The notes below the pieces were generated by a model, which searched no databases, was not told the origin of the DNA, and saw only the letters and a program-made list of their open reading frames with translations. The translations under genes and the position numbers were made by a program. A stretch of 62,058 nucleotides of DNA, filler included. It is 7 parts of 7 records of this genome, joined end to end, with 100 filler letters (N's around TTAATTAATTAA, not from the genome) between each part and the next. Parts side by side here need not be neighbours in the genome. Positions count along the whole stretch, not along the records: positions 9,149 to 14,846 come from SRR31147125_74366; 6 more parts are not named here. One strand, given 5' to 3'. Positions 7,741 to 54,723 of this stretch are shown piece by piece. Within the stretch, counting starts at the first letter, position 1, and every line of letters begins with the position of its first letter.

Positions 7741-9048
7741 TTAGAGGTTTGCTGTTCTATCTGATGGTGTATACCAAATCGGCGAACTCCAAGCACGCTC
7801 CTGAATCGTAGATGGGACATCTTCTAGAGGTTCTATCTTAAGGCTGTTTGCATCATAGGTGCTCCAGCGACAAGTAGGGTTCTCTAAAACACGAACATAG
7901 TAAAAAGCGTCTTGTGATTGATTAAAGTCGGGATCTTCCCAGAGTACTTTAAACTCGGAAACTCCATTTGACTCAGAATCATTACAAGTCGTCAAGTCAA
8001 CTGTTGCTCCATTGTTGGGACAACGGTAGTTACTGTCTGGTTCGAGCCCATCTGAACAAGCGATATCGTATACTTGCTCATGGCTGCCATTGTTATCTGC
8101 CCAGCCTTTAATGACTTGAAGGCGCTGTAAGTTTGCTCCCATGGGGTCTTTAGAAGCCAAGACTAAAAATGATGGGGACTGCTGATTCGGTATATTATTT
8201 TGATGTGAAAGATCTCCCCCCATGGGAGTACCGTTTTGATAAGCCGTTTGGATCATGTTTTGGCGAGGGTGTTGATGAAGATCTTTTGCGTAGTTCCACC
8301 CTGCAAAAAATCTGACGCTGATACGTGTGCCTGAGGTGCCGAATACTTCTTTTCGTAAAAAAGCGTCAAATATAGCATCGCGGCTATTTTCTAATGCCCA
8401 AACACCGGTTAGCCCACCGGGATTATATGCTCTCAACGGAGGGCTGTTGGATTTCGGTTGTTGAGTTAGTCGTCCTTTTGGAGTTGCACCGACTACACCA
8501 CCTTGAGACATATATTGATACTCTTCTGTGGCACCTGGTGTGCCATTTTGGTTATCAGTACCAGCAATGAAACCGTATTTAAAAGGATTAGCTCCTGTTT
8601 TCGTTTTTACTATCAGCCCCTTTTTTAGCCCATTACGCACATAAGAGTCTTCTCGACAATTTACATCTGAGTAGTTAGCGAATTTATCACTTTTACAGTG
8701 ACTTAAAACAGCAGATTCAAAATTACAAAACTCATCAATTGTTCCTGCACCTGTAAGACACTCAGAACTTCCTTTTGATTGATGAATTTCAATCAATGGT
8801 TCTAATCTTTTTCGGCGTTCATAGTCCTCGGTTGTATATTTTTTGGGAGCAAAACTGCTATCCATTCTATCCTCTCTGGCAAAAAACATTCCATCAGACA
8901 AATTACACATATGGGGAATAGTCACTGCTTGACAATTGTTTTCTGTATTGCAGGTTTTATCTAGCTTTTCCCAGAGAATAGAAGCTGTGAAAGCACTATA
9001 TGCGGTAAGCACAGTATCCGGCACAAAATTATTTCTGAAAATAACATT
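7741..9048 (-). CDS. DUF3604 family protein (PHP-like), 5'-truncated at the contig end
   Basis: NVIFR, GGLTGVWA.ENSR, GTSGTRI.VRFF, PMGG, FYYVRVLENPTCRWST, IQERAWSSPIWY. Confidence 0.85.
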   Translation of the reverse strand, partial: NVIFRNNFVPDTVLTAYSAFTASILWEKLDKTCNTENNCQAVTIPHMCNLSDGMFFAREDRMDSSFAPKKYTTEDYERRKRLEPLIEIHQSKGSSECLTGAGTIDEFCNFESAVLSHCKSDKFANYSDVNCREDSYVRNGLKKGLIVKTKTGANPFKYGFIAGTDNQNGTPGATEEYQYMSQGGVVGATPKGRLTQQPKSNSPPLRAYNPGGLTGVWALENSRDAIFDAFLRKEVFGTSGTRISVRFFAGWNYAKDLHQHPRQNMIQTAYQNGTPMGGDLSHQNNIPNQQSPSFLVLASKDPMGANLQRLQVIKGWADNNGSHEQVYDIACSDGLEPDSNYRCPNNGATVDLTTCNDSESNGVSEFKVLWEDPDFNQSQDAFYYVRVLENPTCRWSTYDANSLKIEPLEDVPSTIQERAWSSPIWYTPSDRTANL

Positions 9049-9148
9049 NNNNNNNNNNNNNNNNNNNNNNNNNNNNNNNNNNNNNNNNNNNNTTAATTAA
9101 TTAANNNNNNNNNNNNNNNNNNNNNNNNNNNNNNNNNNNNNNNNNNNN
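9049..9148. other. Artificial contig spacer
   Basis: 44 N + TTAATTAATTAA (stops in all six frames) + 44 N. Confidence 0.99.
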
Positions 9149-9187
9149 GAGTTATTTTGTCAACGTCAAGGAATGTCTTTAGTGGTT

Positions 9188-9290
9188 TTGTTGCCAGCAG
9201 GATTCTGGGAATTCTAAAGGAGCGTGGGATATCTGTATACTGGCGGCAGAGCCACCAGAATTCACTCCCAGGGGAAGACTGGGAGCGAGA
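9188..9290. repeat. Degenerate REP/MITE-like palindromic element
   Basis: Hairpins CTGGCGGC-AGA-GCCACCAG and CTCCCAG-N7-CTGGGAG ending in CGAG; degenerate inverted partner at about 9188-9214. Confidence 0.35.
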
Positions 9291-9320
9291 TTTTAAGATA
9301 TATGATATTCTTAAAATTTC

Positions 9321-10548
9321 CTACCCACACCCACCCTGTCTCGTCACCTTTTTCTCCAGTTTCACTTTGGGTGTAATGGATTTTTTTGGAATGCGCATCC
9401 GCGTCCGGTTCAGCAGCTGGTTGATTTGAGCCGAGTGCGGATTTGAAGGTGTGATGTAATTTTTCACTAACCGGATCGGCAACCAGAGTGCAGTTCTCAT
9501 GTCCTTCATGGCCAAAGGTATCCAGCCAGGCGTTGATGCCGCCCTTCAGGATATAGACGTTAGGAACATTGAGCGTCATCAGATCTTTCCACGCGTTGGT
9601 CGAGCGAACTTCATTGTTACACAAAACAACCACCAACGTATTAGCCGGAGCATCAACCAGGGATTGGGAGATTTGTTTTAACTTATCCATTCCTGTCAAT
9701 TTCGCATCTTTGAGGTGAAAAAGGTTGTAATCCGCTTCATTGCGTACATCCAGCATAATCAGGTTGAGATCGTCATTATTAATCAGGGACAACAGTTCTC
9801 CCGGCTGGATCTGCACCTGATGCTCTGTTAACAAGGCTTTCTTTTCAGCAGGCATGTGCTCCCATTTTTCCGCCAAGGTGGGTTGTCCTATGACTAGAAT
9901 GCCCACAGCAACTGCGAACAAGCTCAAAGCGCCAATGTATCGTGCTTTTGGTTCTTTATTAAGGTCTTTACCGCCAAAAATTCGCTCCAAATGTTCACCG
10001 CCCCAGAACATAAATAAAGCCATCAGAATAACAATCACGACCACGACGCCGGTTGGTAATCCCAACCAGTCCGGGATCGTAAAGCGCCCCATATAACTGG
10101 AATTCCAGAATCCGTCGAACAGGCTGACCGTCTCACCAAAAACAAAAATACCGAATACCGCGCCAAGGACAAAGAACAAGCCATCCAGTTTCAGTGTGGC
10201 CATTCCTACCAAAGCAGTCCCCGGACAATAACCTCCGATAATAAAGCCAAATCCCATAATCAGACCGCCGACAATACCTGGCCAGAGATACGTGGGATTT
10301 ACCCAGATTTTGTCATAATCCAACAACGATAAACCGGAAAAAGCAAAAATGAGTAACATAGCCACAATGATAGCTGTAAACATAACTTTTAGTACGGTCA
10401 TGTCCTTAAAGTAAAATTGCGCTGCCAGTTTCGGCGAGTCACCAAATCCGGACATCTCCAATGCTGTGCCAAATCCCATACCAATGAGTAAATAAATGAG
10501 ATTACCCCCGAAATGTCCAAATATATCAAAAACCGGAAAAGGTCCCAT
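9321..10548 (-). CDS. YeeE/YedE sulfur-transport protein fused to a rhodanese domain; probable true C-terminus ...PKVKLEKKVTRQGGCG (frameshift near 9381-9387)
   Basis: GMGFG, FYFKDMTVLKVMF, GGYCPGT (YeeE Cys); LDVR...FHL...VLCNNEVRS...ILKGGINAW (rhodanese). As sequenced the ORF runs to 9262; the alternative frame stops at 9321. Confidence 0.85.
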
Positions 10549-10645
10549 ATTTTATGTCCTTTAAAACTTTTGTAATAGTACGTATCATCTAAATTTCTAT
10601 CATATAAATCTGCAGGATTTATAAAATCCTGAAATAAAGAAACAT

Positions 10646-11197
10646 TTAATTCCATGTCTTTCTGACAAAATAAGCCAAAGCATAACCGCCACCAAAAACA
10701 GCGAACATAAAAGCCCAGCTGCCAACAGACAGAACAGCTCCACCTGACAAAGCCTGACCGGAGGTACAGCCACGAGCGAACCTGGCGCCATAGCCCATAA
10801 TAGCACCGCCAACAAAAGCCAGGGCCCAGCGCTGTTTGACAGTGATCCCGGGTCCTTTTCCGGTTTTAACACGCAGCCGATTATGCGCGAGACCGGATAT
10901 AAATCCACCAACAATAGTCCCAATAGTCAGGAAAACAATCCAATGATCCAAAGGATTTTTTTCACCACCTGCCATCTTGAGTAGGTAAGGTGTACGGTCT
11001 ATGTGCTCGGGAGAAACCTTGTCCTCAAAAAACACCATAATGCGGTTGAGACCTCCTGACGCTCCCAAACCGTTGCCGGTGATGTAAAAAGCCAAAAACA
11101 GAACCAGGCCCAGTAACAAGCCGCCCAGATATGGATTCAGGTACGGCTTTGCCTGAGATTTATTACGGAGTAAACCGTCCTTTAAAAGACCACTCAT
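10646..11197 (-). CDS. YeeE/YedE family protein (short half-transporter)
   Basis: NPYLGG, GLGASGG, GTIVGGFISG, GYGARFARGCTSGQALSG (conserved Cys). Confidence 0.9.
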   Translation of the reverse strand: MSGLLKDGLLRNKSQAKPYLNPYLGGLLLGLVLFLAFYITGNGLGASGGLNRIMVFFEDKVSPEHIDRTPYLLKMAGGEKNPLDHWIVFLTIGTIVGGFISGLAHNRLRVKTGKGPGITVKQRWALAFVGGAIMGYGARFARGCTSGQALSGGAVLSVGSWAFMFAVFGGGYALAYFVRKTWN

Positions 11198-11199
11198 TT

Positions 11200-13914
11200 T
11201 TAATCTATCTCCTTCTTTTGCGAATGAATTTCAACCTCTTCCCAACCAACAATCATAGCTTTTATACTTGAAAGAGGTGTATGACCTGTCGTGGTCAGGT
11301 ACATATGCATGATGAGAAATGATGTAAAAAACCAGGCGATCAACGAATGGAAAGGTATCAAAAATCCAAGACCGCCCAACTTTGCAGCCACATCAGGCCA
11401 TTGTTGAAAACCCCATATAACAATGCCTGTGAAAATTTGTAAAGGTAAAAGTATATTCAAAATAACAAGATAAGTAACCTTTTGCAAAGGATTCAACTTT
11501 TTATCGACATCCTTTTCAAATGGATGAGAACTCCCCTTAAAGATGCCTTTCAAATAAAAAAGTCCCTGATCGATGGCCTGATTAAAAAATCCTTTAGGCT
11601 CCGGCAGGTAACCCTTGATTTTTCCACTGGAAAAATGATAAAAAGCAGCTAAAAAGGCATTAAAGAGCAGAATAAAACCAAGCACGTTATGAATGATCAC
11701 GGCAGGAGCAAAATCGATAAAACCAAAAACAGCAGGTGCATGAATGATAAGACCGGTAAAGATTAAACCAATGATAGCCAAGGCCTGCAGCCAGTGCCAG
11801 AACCGTTCGTAAGCGGTATACAGATACACTTTTTTGAGAGGCGTTTGATTTGTTTTGCGCTTTGCCAATAATACAATTCGAAGACCGCCATGTATAGAGA
11901 TACCGAGCAGGACCGCGAGTAAAGTCAGTGCCCCTAACCATTGAACGAAAGAAATTTTATCATGACCAATAATGAACAAGCCGGCTTTTCTGGTTGAAGG
12001 TTTAAAAACCAGCTCACCGATCTGATTCTCTTTTATGTGTCCGTTCAAAACAACATTTGTATTTTTGATAAATTCTGGTGTAACATTTTGCGGCCAGGAC
12101 GATGCCAATATTATGGATTTTGTAACCCTGGAATCGTTATTATGACACGTTTCACAATTTTTGGTAGCCCAATCACCGTGGGTTACATTATGGTGTATAC
12201 CATAAGGTTGAATATCAGCATGAATACGCGGATTTTCTACGCCGACTTTTTCAAGTCGAATTGCAACGGCTTTAATTTTATCCTCAGTATTCAGAAGCAA
12301 TTCATCAGAACCTATCTTGCCATCCTTATTCTCATCCAGGGCAGCAAGAATATCCGGGTGATAAGCTTTCTTTTGAAAATAAGCCTTCTTTAAATCCAGC
12401 AAACGAACCGGTTGTGCTTTTTCCCCGCCAATCCAATACCAGGATGTAATCAGATTAAATGGTGTCAACCGTCTCTTACCGTTTTCTTCTATTCTGGGCA
12501 GCAGGATTGGTTCATAACCTTCGATCAAGGCATTAATGGATCCTTTTTCTCCTTTAATACCACGGCATTCTGTACGCGGCTCGCCAGAAAAATCCAGAAC
12601 GGTCCAGTCGAGCACGCGTCTGGCTGGTGCATGTAATCTAGGAATATGACAGGATTCGCAACTCACAGCATCCATGTGCGCTTGTTTATATGGCAGCCAA
12701 TCGTGGGTAACGTTAATATCATGGCAGGATTCACAACGCCGCATGGAATTTTCATATCCGGTACGATAGGCACTCTGCCCTTTGGCAAAATTGTGACTTG
12801 GACGTTTTAAATAGTCGTCTATATCCATACGTCGTGCATCGAACGTGAGATGTGCCGGCCGGGTTTTCTCTGATTCTCTATAATAAATGGGATTATTAAT
12901 CGAATAATGACAATCCACACAATCAACCAAACGTTCACTATGAATATCCCATGTTCGGTATAGATCTTTTTTTCCAGCCAAATTCATACCAGATTCTGAT
13001 AGTTTTTGTGGTGAGATAATCTGGCCTGTTGTCTCCGTGTTATAGTACTCAGGCAGACAACCTGTCGTCACAAGCGGCAATTCTCTTGCTTCATGCACAA
13101 GGCCATGACAAAGACCACAATTATCATTGGTTGGATCCTGGATTTTCATGAATGCAGGTTTAAGATTCTGAAATTTATCAAAAGCCAGTGCATTCCATTT
13201 CCAGGTTCCGCTTTTCTTATTTACAATGCCGCTACCATTTAACGTGGCTGTATTGGCCCATTCGAAACGACCTTTATCAAGCTCTTTTTTTCTGGCGTCA
13301 TTATCCGGTTGTGGTATATGACACAGGAAACAATTCATTTCCACCACACCGGATTTACTCCAATCCCATGGTTTGGATTCTCCAGTTTCAGGATCCAGGA
13401 TACTGGCTTCCGGATTAGTCCTGTCAGGACGCAGCGTGAAAAGATCAATACCATTTTTACTCTTTTCTGCCGGTCCACCACCAACATGGCGAACACCAAA
13501 TGTTTTCACCCAATCTGCTGTGGTCATATCCTTTGCCTGATTCTCATAAAGACTCAGGGTTCGATATCCTATTGGATCCCATTGACCAAAATATTCCGAG
13601 CTTAAATCCCAGTCTCGATGTCCGGTTTCATTTGGAGTCTTTTTTACGTCAGTCAAACCTGCTTCCGAATGAAAACTGTGACGTGTTATATAGTCTGTAT
13701 CATGACAACCACCACACGTTTTCATGGTTGAAACAGAAGCACCGGTATTGAGAACACGCTGTCCATTTTTATCCAGTAGTGGAAAGGACGGATGCATCGT
13801 CTGTTTTGTTGCCGCCTGCAGATTGTTTGTTAATAGAATCATATACAAGAGGACAAAAAAGACCGAAATAATTTTTACTAGTTTATGATAAATATTCAAT
13901 TCAGAGTAAATCAT
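11200..13914 (-). CDS. Periplasmic heptaheme c-type cytochrome (Otr-like) fused to a C-terminal diheme cytochrome b (PhsC/FdnI-like)
   Basis: Signal peptide; seven CxxCH (CGGCH, CFLCH, CGLCH, CVDCH, CESCH, CESCH, CETCH); C-terminal TMs with ERFWHW, IIHNV, NPLQK, PFHS, IMHMY. Confidence 0.85.
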   Translation of the reverse strand: MIYSELNIYHKLVKIISVFFVLLYMILLTNNLQAATKQTMHPSFPLLDKNGQRVLNTGASVSTMKTCGGCHDTDYITRHSFHSEAGLTDVKKTPNETGHRDWDLSSEYFGQWDPIGYRTLSLYENQAKDMTTADWVKTFGVRHVGGGPAEKSKNGIDLFTLRPDRTNPEASILDPETGESKPWDWSKSGVVEMNCFLCHIPQPDNDARKKELDKGRFEWANTATLNGSGIVNKKSGTWKWNALAFDKFQNLKPAFMKIQDPTNDNCGLCHGLVHEARELPLVTTGCLPEYYNTETTGQIISPQKLSESGMNLAGKKDLYRTWDIHSERLVDCVDCHYSINNPIYYRESEKTRPAHLTFDARRMDIDDYLKRPSHNFAKGQSAYRTGYENSMRRCESCHDINVTHDWLPYKQAHMDAVSCESCHIPRLHAPARRVLDWTVLDFSGEPRTECRGIKGEKGSINALIEGYEPILLPRIEENGKRRLTPFNLITSWYWIGGEKAQPVRLLDLKKAYFQKKAYHPDILAALDENKDGKIGSDELLLNTEDKIKAVAIRLEKVGVENPRIHADIQPYGIHHNVTHGDWATKNCETCHNNDSRVTKSIILASSWPQNVTPEFIKNTNVVLNGHIKENQIGELVFKPSTRKAGLFIIGHDKISFVQWLGALTLLAVLLGISIHGGLRIVLLAKRKTNQTPLKKVYLYTAYERFWHWLQALAIIGLIFTGLIIHAPAVFGFIDFAPAVIIHNVLGFILLFNAFLAAFYHFSSGKIKGYLPEPKGFFNQAIDQGLFYLKGIFKGSSHPFEKDVDKKLNPLQKVTYLVILNILLPLQIFTGIVIWGFQQWPDVAAKLGGLGFLIPFHSLIAWFFTSFLIMHMYLTTTGHTPLSSIKAMIVGWEEVEIHSQKKEID

Positions 13915-13934
13915 TTATTCATTCCTTTTAAATC

Positions 13935-14846
13935 CTAAAAGTTTAAAGATCTACCACCACTATTCATTGGATCACCCTCATATCCGAGAGCTTTCCAATC
14001 CAGTCTGATATTTTCAGATTCACCATGGCAGTCAATGCATTGAAGTGCATGTCCCTTAGGTGCAATCATATGTGACAGCGGCCAAAACATGGCTGTTTGA
14101 ACGAATCCATAACTACCGCTATATTCTAAATCGACAGCCTTTGAGCCCAGGCGAACTGCTTTATCCCAGTCAAATTCAGTCCAATACCCGCCCTTTCCAT
14201 AGGTTTGGGGCTGCAGCAGATAATTCTTATTTTTATCATATATCTGTTTTGCTGTATGAACTTTAAATGGCCAGATTTTGGCTTTTTTATCCCTTATTTC
14301 ACCACGTGGTGTATTCAGCAATACTGCTTCACTGGGATCGATTTTATCTCCCAGTAAATAATGATCTGCCATACCATTATACCAGTAATAATTGGGCCGG
14401 ATATTTTTCTCATAGACAAAACTTCCCTTTATCTTGAGATACGTGTGTGTATCTTCAGGCAAATCCTGACCAGCTGCCGACCAGTCCCAGTGCATTTTAG
14501 TCGCCTCTTTAACAGCTGCTGTAGGAATATGGCAGGTCTGACAGGCTACAGACTGAACGTGAGCATTAATGCGTTCGTCTTTATGAAGATTTTCCGCATG
14601 ACAATCTGTGCAATATACCTGGTTCCCATCTTCCAGGCTTACGGAAATAGCACGACCTTTTATTTCATGATTTTGTGATTTATGACAGTCTGTGCACAGA
14701 AAATTATATTTTCCCATGTGCACGTCAATACGTTCTGTTGGATAGTAGAGGCTGCCGTCCAGATCACCGTGCTTGACAGCATTACCGCCGCCACCACGAA
14801 AATGACAACCACCACAGTTTTCCCGTGTCGGTTCACCAACACTTTT
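13935..14846 (-). CDS. otr: Octaheme tetrathionate reductase (Otr) family cytochrome c, 5'-truncated
   Basis: Frame open from the contig end: KSVGEPTRENCGGCHFRGGGGNAVKHGDLDGSL...DVHM; ACQTCHIP, TKMHWDWSAAG, KIWPFK.H, HMIAPK..ALQCIDCH; five CxxCH in the visible part. Confidence 0.85.
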   Translation of the reverse strand, partial: KSVGEPTRENCGGCHFRGGGGNAVKHGDLDGSLYYPTERIDVHMGKYNFLCTDCHKSQNHEIKGRAISVSLEDGNQVYCTDCHAENLHKDERINAHVQSVACQTCHIPTAAVKEATKMHWDWSAAGQDLPEDTHTYLKIKGSFVYEKNIRPNYYWYNGMADHYLLGDKIDPSEAVLLNTPRGEIRDKKAKIWPFKVHTAKQIYDKNKNYLLQPQTYGKGGYWTEFDWDKAVRLGSKAVDLEYSGSYGFVQTAMFWPLSHMIAPKGHALQCIDCHGESENIRLDWKALGYEGDPMNSGGRSLNF

Positions 14847-14946
14847 NNNNNNNNNNNNNNNNNNNNNNNNNNNNNNNNNNNNNNNNNNNNTTAATTAATT
14901 AANNNNNNNNNNNNNNNNNNNNNNNNNNNNNNNNNNNNNNNNNNNN
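14847..14946. other. Artificial contig spacer
   Basis: N-run with TTAATTAATTAA. Confidence 0.99.
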
Positions 14947-23431: not shown

Positions 23432-23531
23432 NNNNNNNNNNNNNNNNNNNNNNNNNNNNNNNNNNNNNNNNNNNNTTAATTAATTAANNNNNNNNNNNNN
23501 NNNNNNNNNNNNNNNNNNNNNNNNNNNNNNN
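23432..23531. other. Artificial contig spacer
   Basis: N-run with TTAATTAATTAA. Confidence 0.99.
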
Positions 23532-33395: not shown

Positions 33396-33495
33396 NNNNN
33401 NNNNNNNNNNNNNNNNNNNNNNNNNNNNNNNNNNNNNNNTTAATTAATTAANNNNNNNNNNNNNNNNNNNNNNNNNNNNNNNNNNNNNNNNNNNN
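33396..33495. other. Artificial contig spacer
   Basis: N-run with TTAATTAATTAA. Confidence 0.99.
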
Positions 33496-41700: not shown

Positions 41701-41800
41701 NNNNNNNNNNNNNNNNNNNNNNNNNNNNNNNNNNNNNNNNNNNNTTAATTAATTAANNNNNNNNNNNNNNNNNNNNNNNNNNNNNNNNNNNNNNNNNNNN
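41701..41800. other. Artificial contig spacer
   Basis: N-run with TTAATTAATTAA. Confidence 0.99.
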
Positions 41801-43354: not shown

Positions 43355-44155
43355 CTACTCCTCGTCGTGATACGTCTTTCTGATCAATAAGGCAATACAA
43401 CCACCGAGAAGCAAGAGAAGAACGATCGCGCCACCGATCATTTTCCGCTGACCAAGGGTATTTTCATAATCCACAATGGCGGCCTTGGTTTCACTCAACT
43501 CGTCCTCAATCTCCCCCTTTTGAGCTTTGATCTTGTCGATGTTGACCGTATGGAACAGACGGCGGAAAGAATTGCGTGACGAAAAGAGTGAATTTTCCAG
43601 TTCTTTCGTGTCGATGCCAACCCGGTGCAGCTTACTGACAGAAGCTTCCAAAGACGCTAAAGACTCCTCGGTCGCGCTGATCTCATTCTTGACATTGACC
43701 GCGCGTTCGTAATCGTGGCAGCGTGAACAGCTGTGCTCATTGATCAATTCAATCGACGCCAACTTGATCGCATGGTTTTCGTGACAGACAACACATTGCG
43801 CTCCGCCGACTTCGAGCGCTTGGCCGTGCGCACTGGCCATATAGTCGTCCTTGACCCCGACATGACAACGGCCACAGAAATCCGGCACCTTGTCGTAATC
43901 GGGAACACCGATAAACCCGCTCTCCGGCAACATCGCCAGTTCAAAATCGGTTGGGTCGCCACCATGGCAATCGTGGCAAGAGATGCCGTTAGCCTCGTGA
44001 ACACTTCCGCGCCAGTGAGCAACAGGATCCGCCAGAATACCATCGAGACCGCCATGACACTGAATACAGACCGTCTCTTCAGCGGCCAGCGAAGCCGTCG
44101 CAAGAAACAAAACAGCCACAAACAAAACAACGGGGATAAGTATTGTATTTTTCAT
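43355..44155 (-). CDS. Membrane-anchored pentaheme cytochrome c (CbcX-like)
   Basis: Signal peptide; CIQCH, CHDCH, CGRCH, CVVCH, CSRCH; C-terminal TM. Confidence 0.88.
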   Translation of the reverse strand: MKNTILIPVVLFVAVLFLATASLAAEETVCIQCHGGLDGILADPVAHWRGSVHEANGISCHDCHGGDPTDFELAMLPESGFIGVPDYDKVPDFCGRCHVGVKDDYMASAHGQALEVGGAQCVVCHENHAIKLASIELINEHSCSRCHDYERAVNVKNEISATEESLASLEASVSKLHRVGIDTKELENSLFSSRNSFRRLFHTVNIDKIKAQKGEIEDELSETKAAIVDYENTLGQRKMIGGAIVLLLLLGGCIALLIRKTYHDEE

Positions 44156-45252
44156 GAGTAGTGCCCCCAGACCGACAGCCCGAGAAACAGCAGTATTCCG
44201 AGCAGATAGAGGGTGACAAAAATCGGTCGCTTCGATGGACGCCTCTCTGGGCTGCGATCCAGGAATGGCAGCATGGCCAGAAAACCCATGGCCGCACCCT
44301 GCGAGGCCAAACCGAGCAACTCACTCGGGAAGATTTTCAATGACTGATAAGCCCACAGGAAATACCACTCCGGCTTGATGTGTTCAGGCGTCGTGAATGG
44401 ATCTGCAGGTTCCAGTGCATCGTACGGAATAAACAACCACGGCGCGTAAAACGTGATGGCCACCAGCGCCGCCAGGGCGAAGAAGACCATCGACAGATCC
44501 TTGATTGTATAGTTTGGATGAAACGGAACACCGTCGATATGTTCTTCATGGTGAAAACTCTGCGTCAATTCCGTCGGACGATAATCCTCTCCAAATGGAG
44601 GGCTCGAAATCCCAACCCTGCGGACACAGAACAGGTGAGCTCCGACCAGCCCTAAAAACGCCATCGGCAACCCCATCACGTGTAGAGCGAAGAAGCGTCC
44701 CAGAGTTGCCTCTCCGACAGACGGCCCGCCACGGAGGAACTCAACCAGATATTCACCGACGATCGGAATCGCCCCTGCGGCATCAGTCGCAACAGTGGTT
44801 GCCCAGAACGACAACTGACTCCAGGGCAGAAGATAACCGGTCAAACAGAAGACCAGCCCAAGATTAAACAGTCCGAACCCCGACAGCCAGGTCAGTTCCC
44901 GCGGACGCTTGTAACTGCCCATAAAAAGAACAGACAGCATGTGCAGCAGCAGAAAGACCATGATCAGGTTTGAGCCGACGACATGCAGATAGCGCAGCAG
45001 CCAGCCATAAGGCACTTCGTTCATGATCATGGTGACGCTGGCAAACGCCTTCTCTGTATCAGGAACGTAATAGACCAGCAGGACAATACCAGTCAGGAAC
45101 TGTAGTCCGAACATCGCCATCAGGACCGCGCCGAGGGTATACCAGATATTGATGTTACGCGGCAGCAGGTAGCCACCCATATTGTTGTGTATCAACTCTC
45201 TGACGCCGAGTCGCCTGTCCAGCCAATCCATCGCTTCTTTAGGTAAATTCAT
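44152..45252 (-). CDS. Cytochrome b (b6 + subunit IV fused) of a Rieske/cyt b complex (CbcW-like)
   Basis: GWLLRYLH, LLLHM, PRELTW, TGYLLPW.Q.S.W, RFFALH, KPEWYF. Confidence 0.92.
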   Translation of the reverse strand: MNLPKEAMDWLDRRLGVRELIHNNMGGYLLPRNINIWYTLGAVLMAMFGLQFLTGIVLLVYYVPDTEKAFASVTMIMNEVPYGWLLRYLHVVGSNLIMVFLLLHMLSVLFMGSYKRPRELTWLSGFGLFNLGLVFCLTGYLLPWSQLSFWATTVATDAAGAIPIVGEYLVEFLRGGPSVGEATLGRFFALHVMGLPMAFLGLVGAHLFCVRRVGISSPPFGEDYRPTELTQSFHHEEHIDGVPFHPNYTIKDLSMVFFALAALVAITFYAPWLFIPYDALEPADPFTTPEHIKPEWYFLWAYQSLKIFPSELLGLASQGAAMGFLAMLPFLDRSPERRPSKRPIFVTLYLLGILLFLGLSVWGHYS

Positions 45253-54623: not shown

Positions 54624-54723
54624 NNNNNNNNNNNNNNNNNNNNNNNNNNNNNNNNNNNNNNNNNNNNTTAATTAATTAANNNNNNNNNNNNNNNNNNNNN
54701 NNNNNNNNNNNNNNNNNNNNNNN
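54624..54723. other. Artificial contig spacer
   Basis: N-run with TTAATTAATTAA. Confidence 0.99.

Follow-up and report, generated by a model that had tools for sequence, protein, structure and literature searches.

The structure of the multiheme cytochrome Otr has been solved since 2004 and its role is disputed, with tetrathionate, nitrite, hydroxylamine and sulfite all proposed as substrates (PMC12949373; papers are cited by accession throughout). The Shewanella enzyme is soluble and periplasmic and is thought to be fed through CymA (PMC12949373), and otr is routinely scored in metagenomes as a marker of tetrathionate reduction (PMC9040765, PMC7887784). Here we analyse an otr-containing gene cassette found in a window of 62,058 nt, which is the whole stretch of DNA under study and consists of seven contigs joined by N44-TTAATTAATTAA-N44 linkers (at 9049-9148, 14847-14946, 23432-23531, 33396-33495, 41701-41800 and 54624-54723). 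Unlike Shewanella Otr as described, the Otr of this cassette is encoded together with a cytochrome b-heptaheme partner of its own, here called HepB, a split sulfur channel (YeeS and YeeN) and a putative carrier arm. The cassette points to a role in sulfur metabolism and yields a concrete, testable hypothesis of what Otr does in vivo and with which redox partner.

Each part of the cassette belongs to or resembles a known family, namely Otr, a CbcL-like cytochrome, PmpAB, the rhodanese fold and a SoxY-like arm. In Wolinella succinogenes the periplasmic rhodanese-type polysulfide-sulfur transferase Sud feeds the quinol-linked reductase Psr, and in the Sox system the sulfur that SoxT1A imports is bound to SoxY. 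The sulfur substrates of SoxY are bound by the Cys of its C-terminal GGCGG motif (PMC6067878), for which the term 'swinging arm' is in use (PMC11237559). SoxT1A imports sulfur for oxidation and SoxT1B acts in signal transduction, and the same source describes PmpA as a C-half (Cys293) and PmpB as an N-half (Cys91), with one Cys each, that are proposed to form a heterodimer (PMC11582611). CbcL of Geobacter sulfurreducens, which HepB resembles, joins an N-terminal periplasmic multiheme c part to a C-terminal b domain of the HydC/FdnI type located at the quinone pool (PMC6295460). What is apparently undescribed is the combination of these parts, a half-channel fused to a GGCG-tailed rhodanese that is external and Cys-less, and a stand-alone family of putative carriers. 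An earlier note on this DNA, written by a model from the letters alone, knew of no characterised system with such an architecture, and we likewise found no description of the cassette in the full-text literature, a result on which the supplementary gene maps of two papers (PMC11237559, PMC9040765) could bear.

The cassette fills the whole contig at 9149..14846 (5,698 nt, about 42% G+C) with four open reading frames (ORFs) in series on the minus strand. Together with an ArsR-type regulator gene found at many related loci, we tentatively read the operon otr, hepB, yeeS, yeeN-rhd as an extracytoplasmic machine for sulfur redox chemistry and uptake, anchored to the cytoplasmic membrane, a reading that we prefer while giving it somewhat less than an even chance. 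The four gene identities given in the earlier note are correct, as judged by profile and PDB matches, and the ORFs bear out its co-orientation of the genes and its intergenic gaps of 20, 2 and 97 nt. The features are as follows.

13935..14846, minus strand: Otr fragment, 303 C-terminal residues, open at the contig end
11200..13914, minus strand: HepB, a fused cytochrome of 904 aa with a signal anchor, a heptaheme c domain, a linker transmembrane (TM) helix and a cytochrome b domain of the PhsC/FdnI type
11980..13809, minus strand: heptaheme c-type domain of HepB, about residues 36-645, placed by the CxxCH positions in the translation and by invariant columns
11251..11820, minus strand: cytochrome b domain of HepB, residues 699-888 (PF01292), with four TM helices and invariant histidines
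10646..11197, minus strand: YeeS, 183 aa, PmpA-like C-terminal half-channel (PF04143 profile positions 173-309), Cys144 at 10766..10768
9262..10548, minus strand: YeeN-Rhd ORF, 428 aa, the N-terminal half of PF04143 followed by a PF00581 rhodanese
9880..10548, minus strand: YeeN, PmpB-like N-terminal half-channel (PF04143 positions 12-158) with two extra TM helices, Cys108 at 10225..10227
9523..9804, minus strand: rhodanese-fold domain (PF00581, 52.1 bits), loop CNNEVRS, Cys310 at 9619..9621
9368..9324, minus strand: out-of-frame arm KVKLEKKVTRQGGCG, behind a frame break at 9369-9370 and followed by TAG at 9323..9321, from comparison of the DNA with the protein P0122
9262..9320, minus strand: probably spurious 3' extension (about 20 codons) of the 428-aa ORF, divergent from all relatives after ...KKIHYT

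Co-conservation of the genes, which the earlier note had itself named as the test of its proposal, turned out to be nearly complete. A scan for relatives of HepB, with one genome per species, gave at least 544 loci, and the best 80 of these (47-57% identity) were examined for synteny by tblastn with the window proteins, requiring 1.5 kb of room upstream and 1.9 kb downstream. Where there was room, otr lay directly upstream of hepB at 66 of 67 loci, and yeeS, yeeN and the rhodanese followed hepB in series at 71 of 72; the complete order otr, hepB, yeeS, yeeN-rhd was present at 60 of the 61 loci with room on both sides. Judged by their titles, the 80 loci comprise 75 from Chloroflexota lineages, two from KSB1 (the closest, at 57% identity), one from Cytophagia and two from Acidimicrobiia. 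Across dozens of species, from Chloroflexota, KSB1 and further phyla, Otr thus has a near-obligate link to a dedicated quinone-linked cytochrome, a Cys-lined channel and a conserved Cys that would act as an external carrier. The exception, locus L004, carries an orphan hepB (7992-10661) with a HigB-type toxin gene upstream and genes for a nucleotidyl transferase and a DsbA-cyclophilin protein downstream.

The Otr fragment belongs to its family although it is truncated, scoring 410.4 bits against TIGR04315 (cut-off 375) and 214.9 bits (9e-64) against PF11783. It matches residues 130-435 of Shewanella Otr (1SP3) with E=1.9e-107, and the full-length orthologue from locus L003 reaches E=3.8e-151. 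About 130 N-terminal residues are missing at the contig end, leaving five of eight CxxCH motifs visible and three lost; eight are found in 59 of the 61 full-length orthologues from the loci. Two residues of the missing region, K103 and C111, which correspond to K56 and C64 of 1SP3, are invariant in 39/39 orthologues. In the 2004 work of Mowat et al., K56 is said to be the lysine ligand of the active-site heme in Otr, with C64 as its neighbour. Neighbours of otr elsewhere are also of interest here: in lucinid symbionts a divergent soxY-soxZ pair adjoins otr (PMC11237559), which hints, independently of the cassette, that Otr cooperates with carrier arms, and in T. dismutans the Otr gene adjoins a cytochrome b gene, according to the genome paper (PMC4911364).

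HepB, for which the database holds more than 1786 homologues, begins with a hydrophobic anchor, and its seven CxxCH motifs are invariant in 20 relatives. The b domain (residues 699-888) scores 71.5 bits against PF01292, well above the threshold of 30.1, and within it H707, H725, H742, H856 and H870, invariant in the same 20 relatives, presumably serve as heme ligands in the TM helices. The best named match is PhsC (NF011582), and at 138.2 bits, below the cut-off of 204, HepB was not accepted as a PhsC equivalog. For the b domain there is a Foldseek match to FdnI (1kqf_C, prob 0.98, TMt 0.52). HepB differs from CbcL in having seven hemes where CbcL has nine, in a comparison drawn from descriptions of architecture and not from sequence, and in having about five C-terminal helices plus the N-terminal anchor where CbcL has six TM helices. 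The partner differs as well, being Otr for HepB and an extracellular electron-transfer chain for CbcL, and the survey that describes CbcL reports no homologue of it in Chloroflexi (PMC6295460). The extracytoplasmic part of HepB also contains an EF-hand-like loop, DENKDGKIGSDE (residues 527-538, window 12301..12336), without variation at D527 and E538, and with almost none at G532, among the 20 relatives; it is modelled with a predicted local distance difference test (pLDDT) score of 80-92 and is a possible calcium site.

YeeS and YeeN show the PmpA/PmpB pattern of adjacent genes, four-TM cores and one Cys in each protein, and the order, A and then B, is also shared. Cys144 of YeeS, kept in 61/61 sequences, aligns with Cys293 of S. 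thermophila YeeE (6LEP/6LEO), GCTSG falling on GCNIG. Cys108 of YeeN is kept in 67/67 and in 121/121 sequences, and would be the equivalent of PmpB Cys91. YeeN extends the PmpB plan by two TM helices and by an external domain of rhodanese fold that ends in a GGCG tail. A single-chain transporter of the YeeE/TsuA kind (about 330-350 aa, nine TM helices, three conserved Cys) was considered and rejected, the protein here being split and having two conserved Cys; the NCBIfam models of TsuA score 27-38 bits with the channel proteins, against cut-offs of 400-645. Unlike YeeE/TsuA systems, the cassette encodes no TsuB/YeeD or TusA partner.

The membrane topology bears on where the sulfur chemistry could take place. 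YeeS has four TM helices, with both termini predicted to be inside and with a K/R-rich N-terminus and loop 106-122. In YeeE the N-terminus is outside and the two halves are inverted (PMC7449682), the AlphaFold2 (AF2) model of the YeeN orthologue from L003 has six long helices, and the mean number of K+R per YeeN loop alternates (0.4, 2.4, 0.0, 1.1, 1.2, 5.2). Taken together, these points put the K/R-rich loop 184-204 of YeeN inside and the rhodanese-arm module outside, so that the rhodanese domain and the arm are predicted to be on the same side of the membrane as Otr and the HepB hemes. Independent support for an outside location comes from stand-alone forms of the module, which begin with a signal-anchor pattern. 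The chain that the earlier note had drawn, from quinol through cytochrome b and the heme domain to Otr, fits this architecture and topology.

All 7 Foldseek matches of the rhodanese domain at E<=0.001 are rhodaneses, and the loop CNNEVRS of the window protein has a Cys (Cys310) at the catalytic position. The earlier note had proposed sulfur capture, and a role of the rhodanese as its conserved catalyst did not survive comparison with relatives. Among 121 close homologues (the window protein and its 120 closest database homologues; S 92, C 18, D 6, G 5), 18 have a Cys in the loop; the figure is 2/71 when the window protein is grouped with 70 locus orthologues, and 1 of 91 for representatives at 50% identity, made up of 56 short, stand-alone proteins (S 41, D 6, G 5, A 4) and 35 long, fused ones (S 25, G 8, D 1, C 1). 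The rarity of the loop Cys means that the rhodanese fold is conserved and the persulfide chemistry of the loop is not. Judged from the sequences, a loop with Cys and Arg characterises the clade to which the window protein belongs, and since CNNEVRS keeps both the Cys and the Arg, the domain may be catalytically active there.

What is conserved as nucleophile, and absent from the earlier note, is a GGCG arm at the C-terminus. The last residues of the fusion proteins read ...TPKVKLxxKRxxxGGCG-COOH; a G(G)CG(G) tail is present in 115 of the 120 database homologues and 64 of the 70 locus orthologues, and the GGC of the tail is invariant in 38/38. In the AF2 model of the L003 orthologue the arm (residues 397-405) falls below pLDDT 50 and is disordered, the rhodanese domain lying above 90. 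A glycine-flanked Cys at the C-terminus is the hallmark of SoxY, and the arm resembles that of SoxY in having such a Cys on a flexible tail, a likeness of motif only. A SoxY domain in YeeN-Rhd was looked for and rejected, with no Pfam match at E<=10 in P0122 or the L003 protein. The cassette arm is GGCG-COOH on a rhodanese fold fused to a channel, the SoxY end is GGCGG, and SoxXA, SoxB and SoxZ of the Sox system are all absent from the cassette. What the two have in common beyond the motif is the pairing of a carrier arm, putative in the cassette, with a YeeE-type importer (PMC11582611), as in the hand-off from SoxYZ to SoxT1A. In concept the cassette is also like Sud-Psr, where an external carrier of rhodanese fold serves a membrane-anchored sulfur reductase, and Sud (1QXN) is both a weak sequence match (E=0.019) and a fold match to the rhodanese domain. 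Sud, however, uses the rhodanese-loop Cys that most cassette members lack, and the reductase is a molybdoenzyme in Sud-Psr and a heme enzyme in the cassette.

The six locus ORFs outside the G(G)CG(G) count comprise two that keep the Cys (GGCS, GGCSS), one cut by a contig end and three with TGA. In these three, from L056, L063 and L064, the tail reads GGG-TGA-GGY-stop (sites L056:12606-12640, L063:12517-12560 and L064:8464-8500), and the retention of TGA-Gly-stop in proteins only 56-65% identical to each other suggests selenocysteine (Sec). A GC hairpin lies about 15 nt downstream of the TGA in all three, with mixed folding statistics (z-scores -1.7, -3.1 and -0.1), and hairpins, for the most part terminator-like and with runs of U, also follow the gene at many loci of the Cys type. 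An Rfam scan around the L064 variant found no selenocysteine insertion sequence (SECIS) family and nothing near a gathering score, so that a SECIS in the TGA variants is a candidate only.

Such candidate selenocysteine arms speak for a module handling selenium or tellurium oxyanions instead of sulfur, as do NCBIfam matches, all of them weak, with YedE/FdhT at 33 bits, a rhodanese-related (seleno)protein at 37 bits and ExtN at 15.7 bits. We regard this as very unlikely: all of these matches are far below their cut-offs, exchange of Sec and Cys is common in redox proteins and is uninformative on the substrate, and the genes that recur in the flanks are sulfur genes.

The external module is not confined to the fusion. 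A profile of it found 147 representatives at E<=1e-30, and 56 of the best 150 are stand-alone proteins of about 210 aa. These have a short K/R stretch, one hydrophobic helix ending in ...GQPT and a Cys-less rhodanese fold, and 53 of the 56 end in GC[GS]. This family, of which P0250-P0352 are examples located outside the window, may be an unrecognised class of external sulfur carriers.

From these elements a mechanism can be proposed. The PhsC/FdnI-type b domain of HepB would exchange electrons with the quinone pool and pass them through the seven c hemes to Otr on the membrane's outer face. YeeS and YeeN would form a heterodimeric channel of the YeeE type with one Cys on each side of the constriction, Cys144 on the outer and Cys108 on the inner, and the two extra helices of YeeN would bring the rhodanese-fold domain, with its flexible ...GGCG end, to the outside. 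The SoxY-like arm Cys would covalently bind oxidised or zero-valent sulfur, for instance by attacking tetrathionate to give a thiosulfonate adduct, or in the form of a per- or polysulfide, and Otr would reduce the arm-bound adduct with electrons from quinol. The thiosulfate or sulfane sulfur released would then enter through a relay from the arm Cys to YeeS Cys144 and on to YeeN Cys108, to be assimilated in the cell and sensed by the ArsR-type repressor. In its most specific form the proposal holds that this Otr clade has as its physiological substrate a sulfur adduct, and no free ion. The adduct would be borne on the SoxY-like Cys/Sec arm of a rhodanese module, mostly Cys-less and facing outward, that is joined to a half-channel, which would make the system a hitherto unrecognised, carrier-arm-dependent, molybdenum-free respiratory sulfur reductase coupled to cysteine-relay import; this narrower version we consider doubtful.

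Thiolates react readily with tetrathionate to give thiosulfonate adducts. We favour the reductive direction because of this reactivity, because of the high potential of the tetrathionate/thiosulfate couple (+198 mV, as quoted in PMC8528874) and because the b domain is PhsC-like. The reading as a sulfur redox-and-uptake machine is also supported by the 36-fold induction of otr by tetrathionate in sediment microcosms (PMC8528874).

The same machine could nevertheless run in the oxidative direction. Otr would then load sulfur from sulfide or thiosulfate onto the arm Cys in the manner of SoxXA or SQR, HepB would deliver the electrons to menaquinone, and the sulfane sulfur on the arm would be imported for assimilation, further oxidation or detoxification, in what would be a fused form of the SoxY-to-SoxT hand-off. 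Cytochromes b of the FdnI/HydC type normally reduce quinone, the arm is SoxY-like, the ArsR-type regulator is related to BigR (47 bits, below the cut-off), and genes for a type III SQR, DUF1641 and DsrE2 adjoin the cassette in L003, L005 and L009. We nonetheless judge oxidation to be unlikely. Conjugation of thiosulfate to a thiol is expected to have a potential near that of the tetrathionate/thiosulfate couple (the +198 mV quoted in PMC8528874), which we take to be too high for the reduction of menaquinone; the b domain scores best against PhsC, which is of the quinol-oxidising type, and in vitro Otr enzymes have very little activity as thiosulfate oxidases (PMC12949373).

A frequent fifth gene, which the earlier note did not have, encodes the regulator. 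An ArsR/SmtB-family protein is present in 45 of the examined loci (47 ORFs, e.g. L038:6069-6413), and at 38 of 61 loci an ArsR-family gene lies on the same strand no more than 500 nt upstream of otr; in the window this gene would lie in the part that is cut off. A single Cys is invariant in 47/47 of these proteins, in the motif LHAxxCxALxDPxR. The best named matches are TsoR (NF045707, 70 bits) and BigR, both below cut-off, and a literature search for the name TsoR found nothing relevant. Clustering of the flanking ORFs from all 80 loci revealed nothing else conserved beyond the regulator. Some loci have other regulators (PocR-HTH, XRE-cupin, LysR), L005 and L009 have a second copy of the ArsR-type regulator, and in L013, L036, L048 and L068 the cassette stands beside genes for a secreted four-rhodanese protein and a multiheme cytochrome.

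YeeS and YeeN-Rhd might alternatively serve mainly as a sensor input, importing a little sulfur by which the single-Cys ArsR repressor is modified, much as SoxT1B acts for SoxR, with Otr and HepB working on a free substrate without the arm. The invariance of the regulator Cys and the position of its gene at 38 of 61 loci agree with this, as does the part that SoxT1B plays in signal transduction (PMC11582611). At the other 23 of the 61 loci, however, the 500 nt upstream of otr hold no ArsR ORF on the otr strand, and some loci carry one of the other regulators in its place, yet the Yee genes are retained. A sensing role is also compatible with the redox-and-uptake reading and does not exclude it, and as a replacement for it we rate it as quite improbable.

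Several points weigh against the reading as a reductive sulfur machine. Persulfide sensors of the ArsR type typically govern the oxidation or detoxification of sulfide, which would favour the opposite flow of electrons. What we observe is the set of parts and their order, with conserved heme motifs, channel cysteines and arm cysteine; we infer the respiratory function, the substrate, the direction and a contact between the arm and Otr. Synteny is known from the 80 best of at least 544 loci. The outside placement of the rhodanese domain and arm has homology and charge bias as its basis, and the rhodanese loop usual among the relatives, SNDE, is acidic and Cys-less. The heme domain of HepB could not be modelled: the AF2 model has a mean pLDDT of 56, with residues 248-431 below 50 and residues 430-575 at 70-92, and it is unusable except for confirming the FdnI-like b domain. 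A Foldseek search of the HepB model against the PDB gave no match at E<=0.001, the top match being a weak one to 1SP3 (E=0.034), and a phmmer search of HepB against the PDB gave only chance-level matches. In the copy in the window, moreover, the arm is out of frame, as described below, and if the break is real this copy has no arm. Finally, otr is dispensable for tetrathionate respiration in Shewanella sp. ANA-3, where its deletion in a ttr-deletion background left the conversion of tetrathionate and trithionate almost unchanged, purified Otr enzymes favour nitrite and hydroxylamine, and the authors of that study lean to sulfite as the substrate of Otr (PMC12949373).

The preference of the purified enzymes for nitrite and hydroxylamine, and the assignment of Otr to nitrite reduction in several genome papers (PMC6896113, PMC5276818), would fit an Otr that acts as a nitrite, hydroxylamine or NO reductase fed by HepB, for ammonification or detoxification, with the Yee genes merely co-transcribed for an unrelated import of sulfur. 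Such an arrangement is hard to square with the linkage of the channel and arm genes at 60 of 61 loci from divergent species, or with a conserved arm Cys and its candidate Sec variant predicted to lie outside beside the hemes. The active-site Cys of Otr (the C64 equivalent) is invariant, and no nitrogen-cycle gene recurs in the flanks of the examined loci; we think a nitrogen role improbable.

We give the same low standing to a reduction of sulfite to sulfide by Otr, in the manner of MccA/SirA, with the channel and arm handling sulfite or the sulfide or persulfide product. MccA differs from Otr by a special heme motif, and partners of the MccCD or SirCD type are absent from the cassette. More sulfite accumulated without otr in ANA-3, and the eight hemes of Otr and MccA superimpose; the ANA-3 inference is, however, indirect and in need of confirmation according to its authors, and a copper site sets MccA apart from Otr (PMC12949373).

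If the substrate of Otr in this cassette is indeed bound to the arm, the poor handling of tetrathionate by purified Otr and the missing tetrathionate phenotype of otr mutants would be explained, and the rhodanese-GGCG proteins, stand-alone and fused, would form a new and widespread family of membrane-anchored extracytoplasmic carriers. The redox-and-uptake reading, if true, would mean that sulfur intermediates in anoxic sediments, in springs and in sludge can also be cycled by a route independent of molybdenum.

The frame break in the window was located by comparison with P0122, a 90%-identical protein that ends in ...IHYTPKVKLEKKVTRQGGCG, over the stretch ...KKIHYTPKVKLEKKVTRQGGCG. The window YeeN-Rhd reads ...KKIHYT and then shifts frame where, in a c/a run, a Pro codon has shrunk to one c (position 9369), a gap of 2 nt that may be an assembly error or a real lesion. 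Relatives of the protein are about 405-415 aa long, compared with 428 aa for the window ORF. Position 9321, at which the earlier note had started its region, is the last base of the TAG that closes the arm at 9323..9321. A scan of the contig for promoters and terminators gave promoter-like sites at chance level and no clear terminator between the genes.

The neighbouring genes in the window are on other contigs, so neither flank is physically linked to the cassette and no context can be taken from them; a DUF3604 gene on the left and purine genes on the right were accordingly rejected as cassette context. The DUF3604 ORF (window 7741-9024), which is unrelated to the cassette, reaches its contig end, covers profile positions 195-591 and is truncated at the 5' end. 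Within the window the G+C content lies between about 0.33 (24-34 kb) and about 0.54. The bin may therefore be heterogeneous, and an origin of the 5.7-kb contig from the same organism is not assured. A further contig of the same bin carries a cytochrome b/b6 gene of the bc1 type at window 44152-45252, which indicates a quinol-oxidising bc complex in the organism or the bin.

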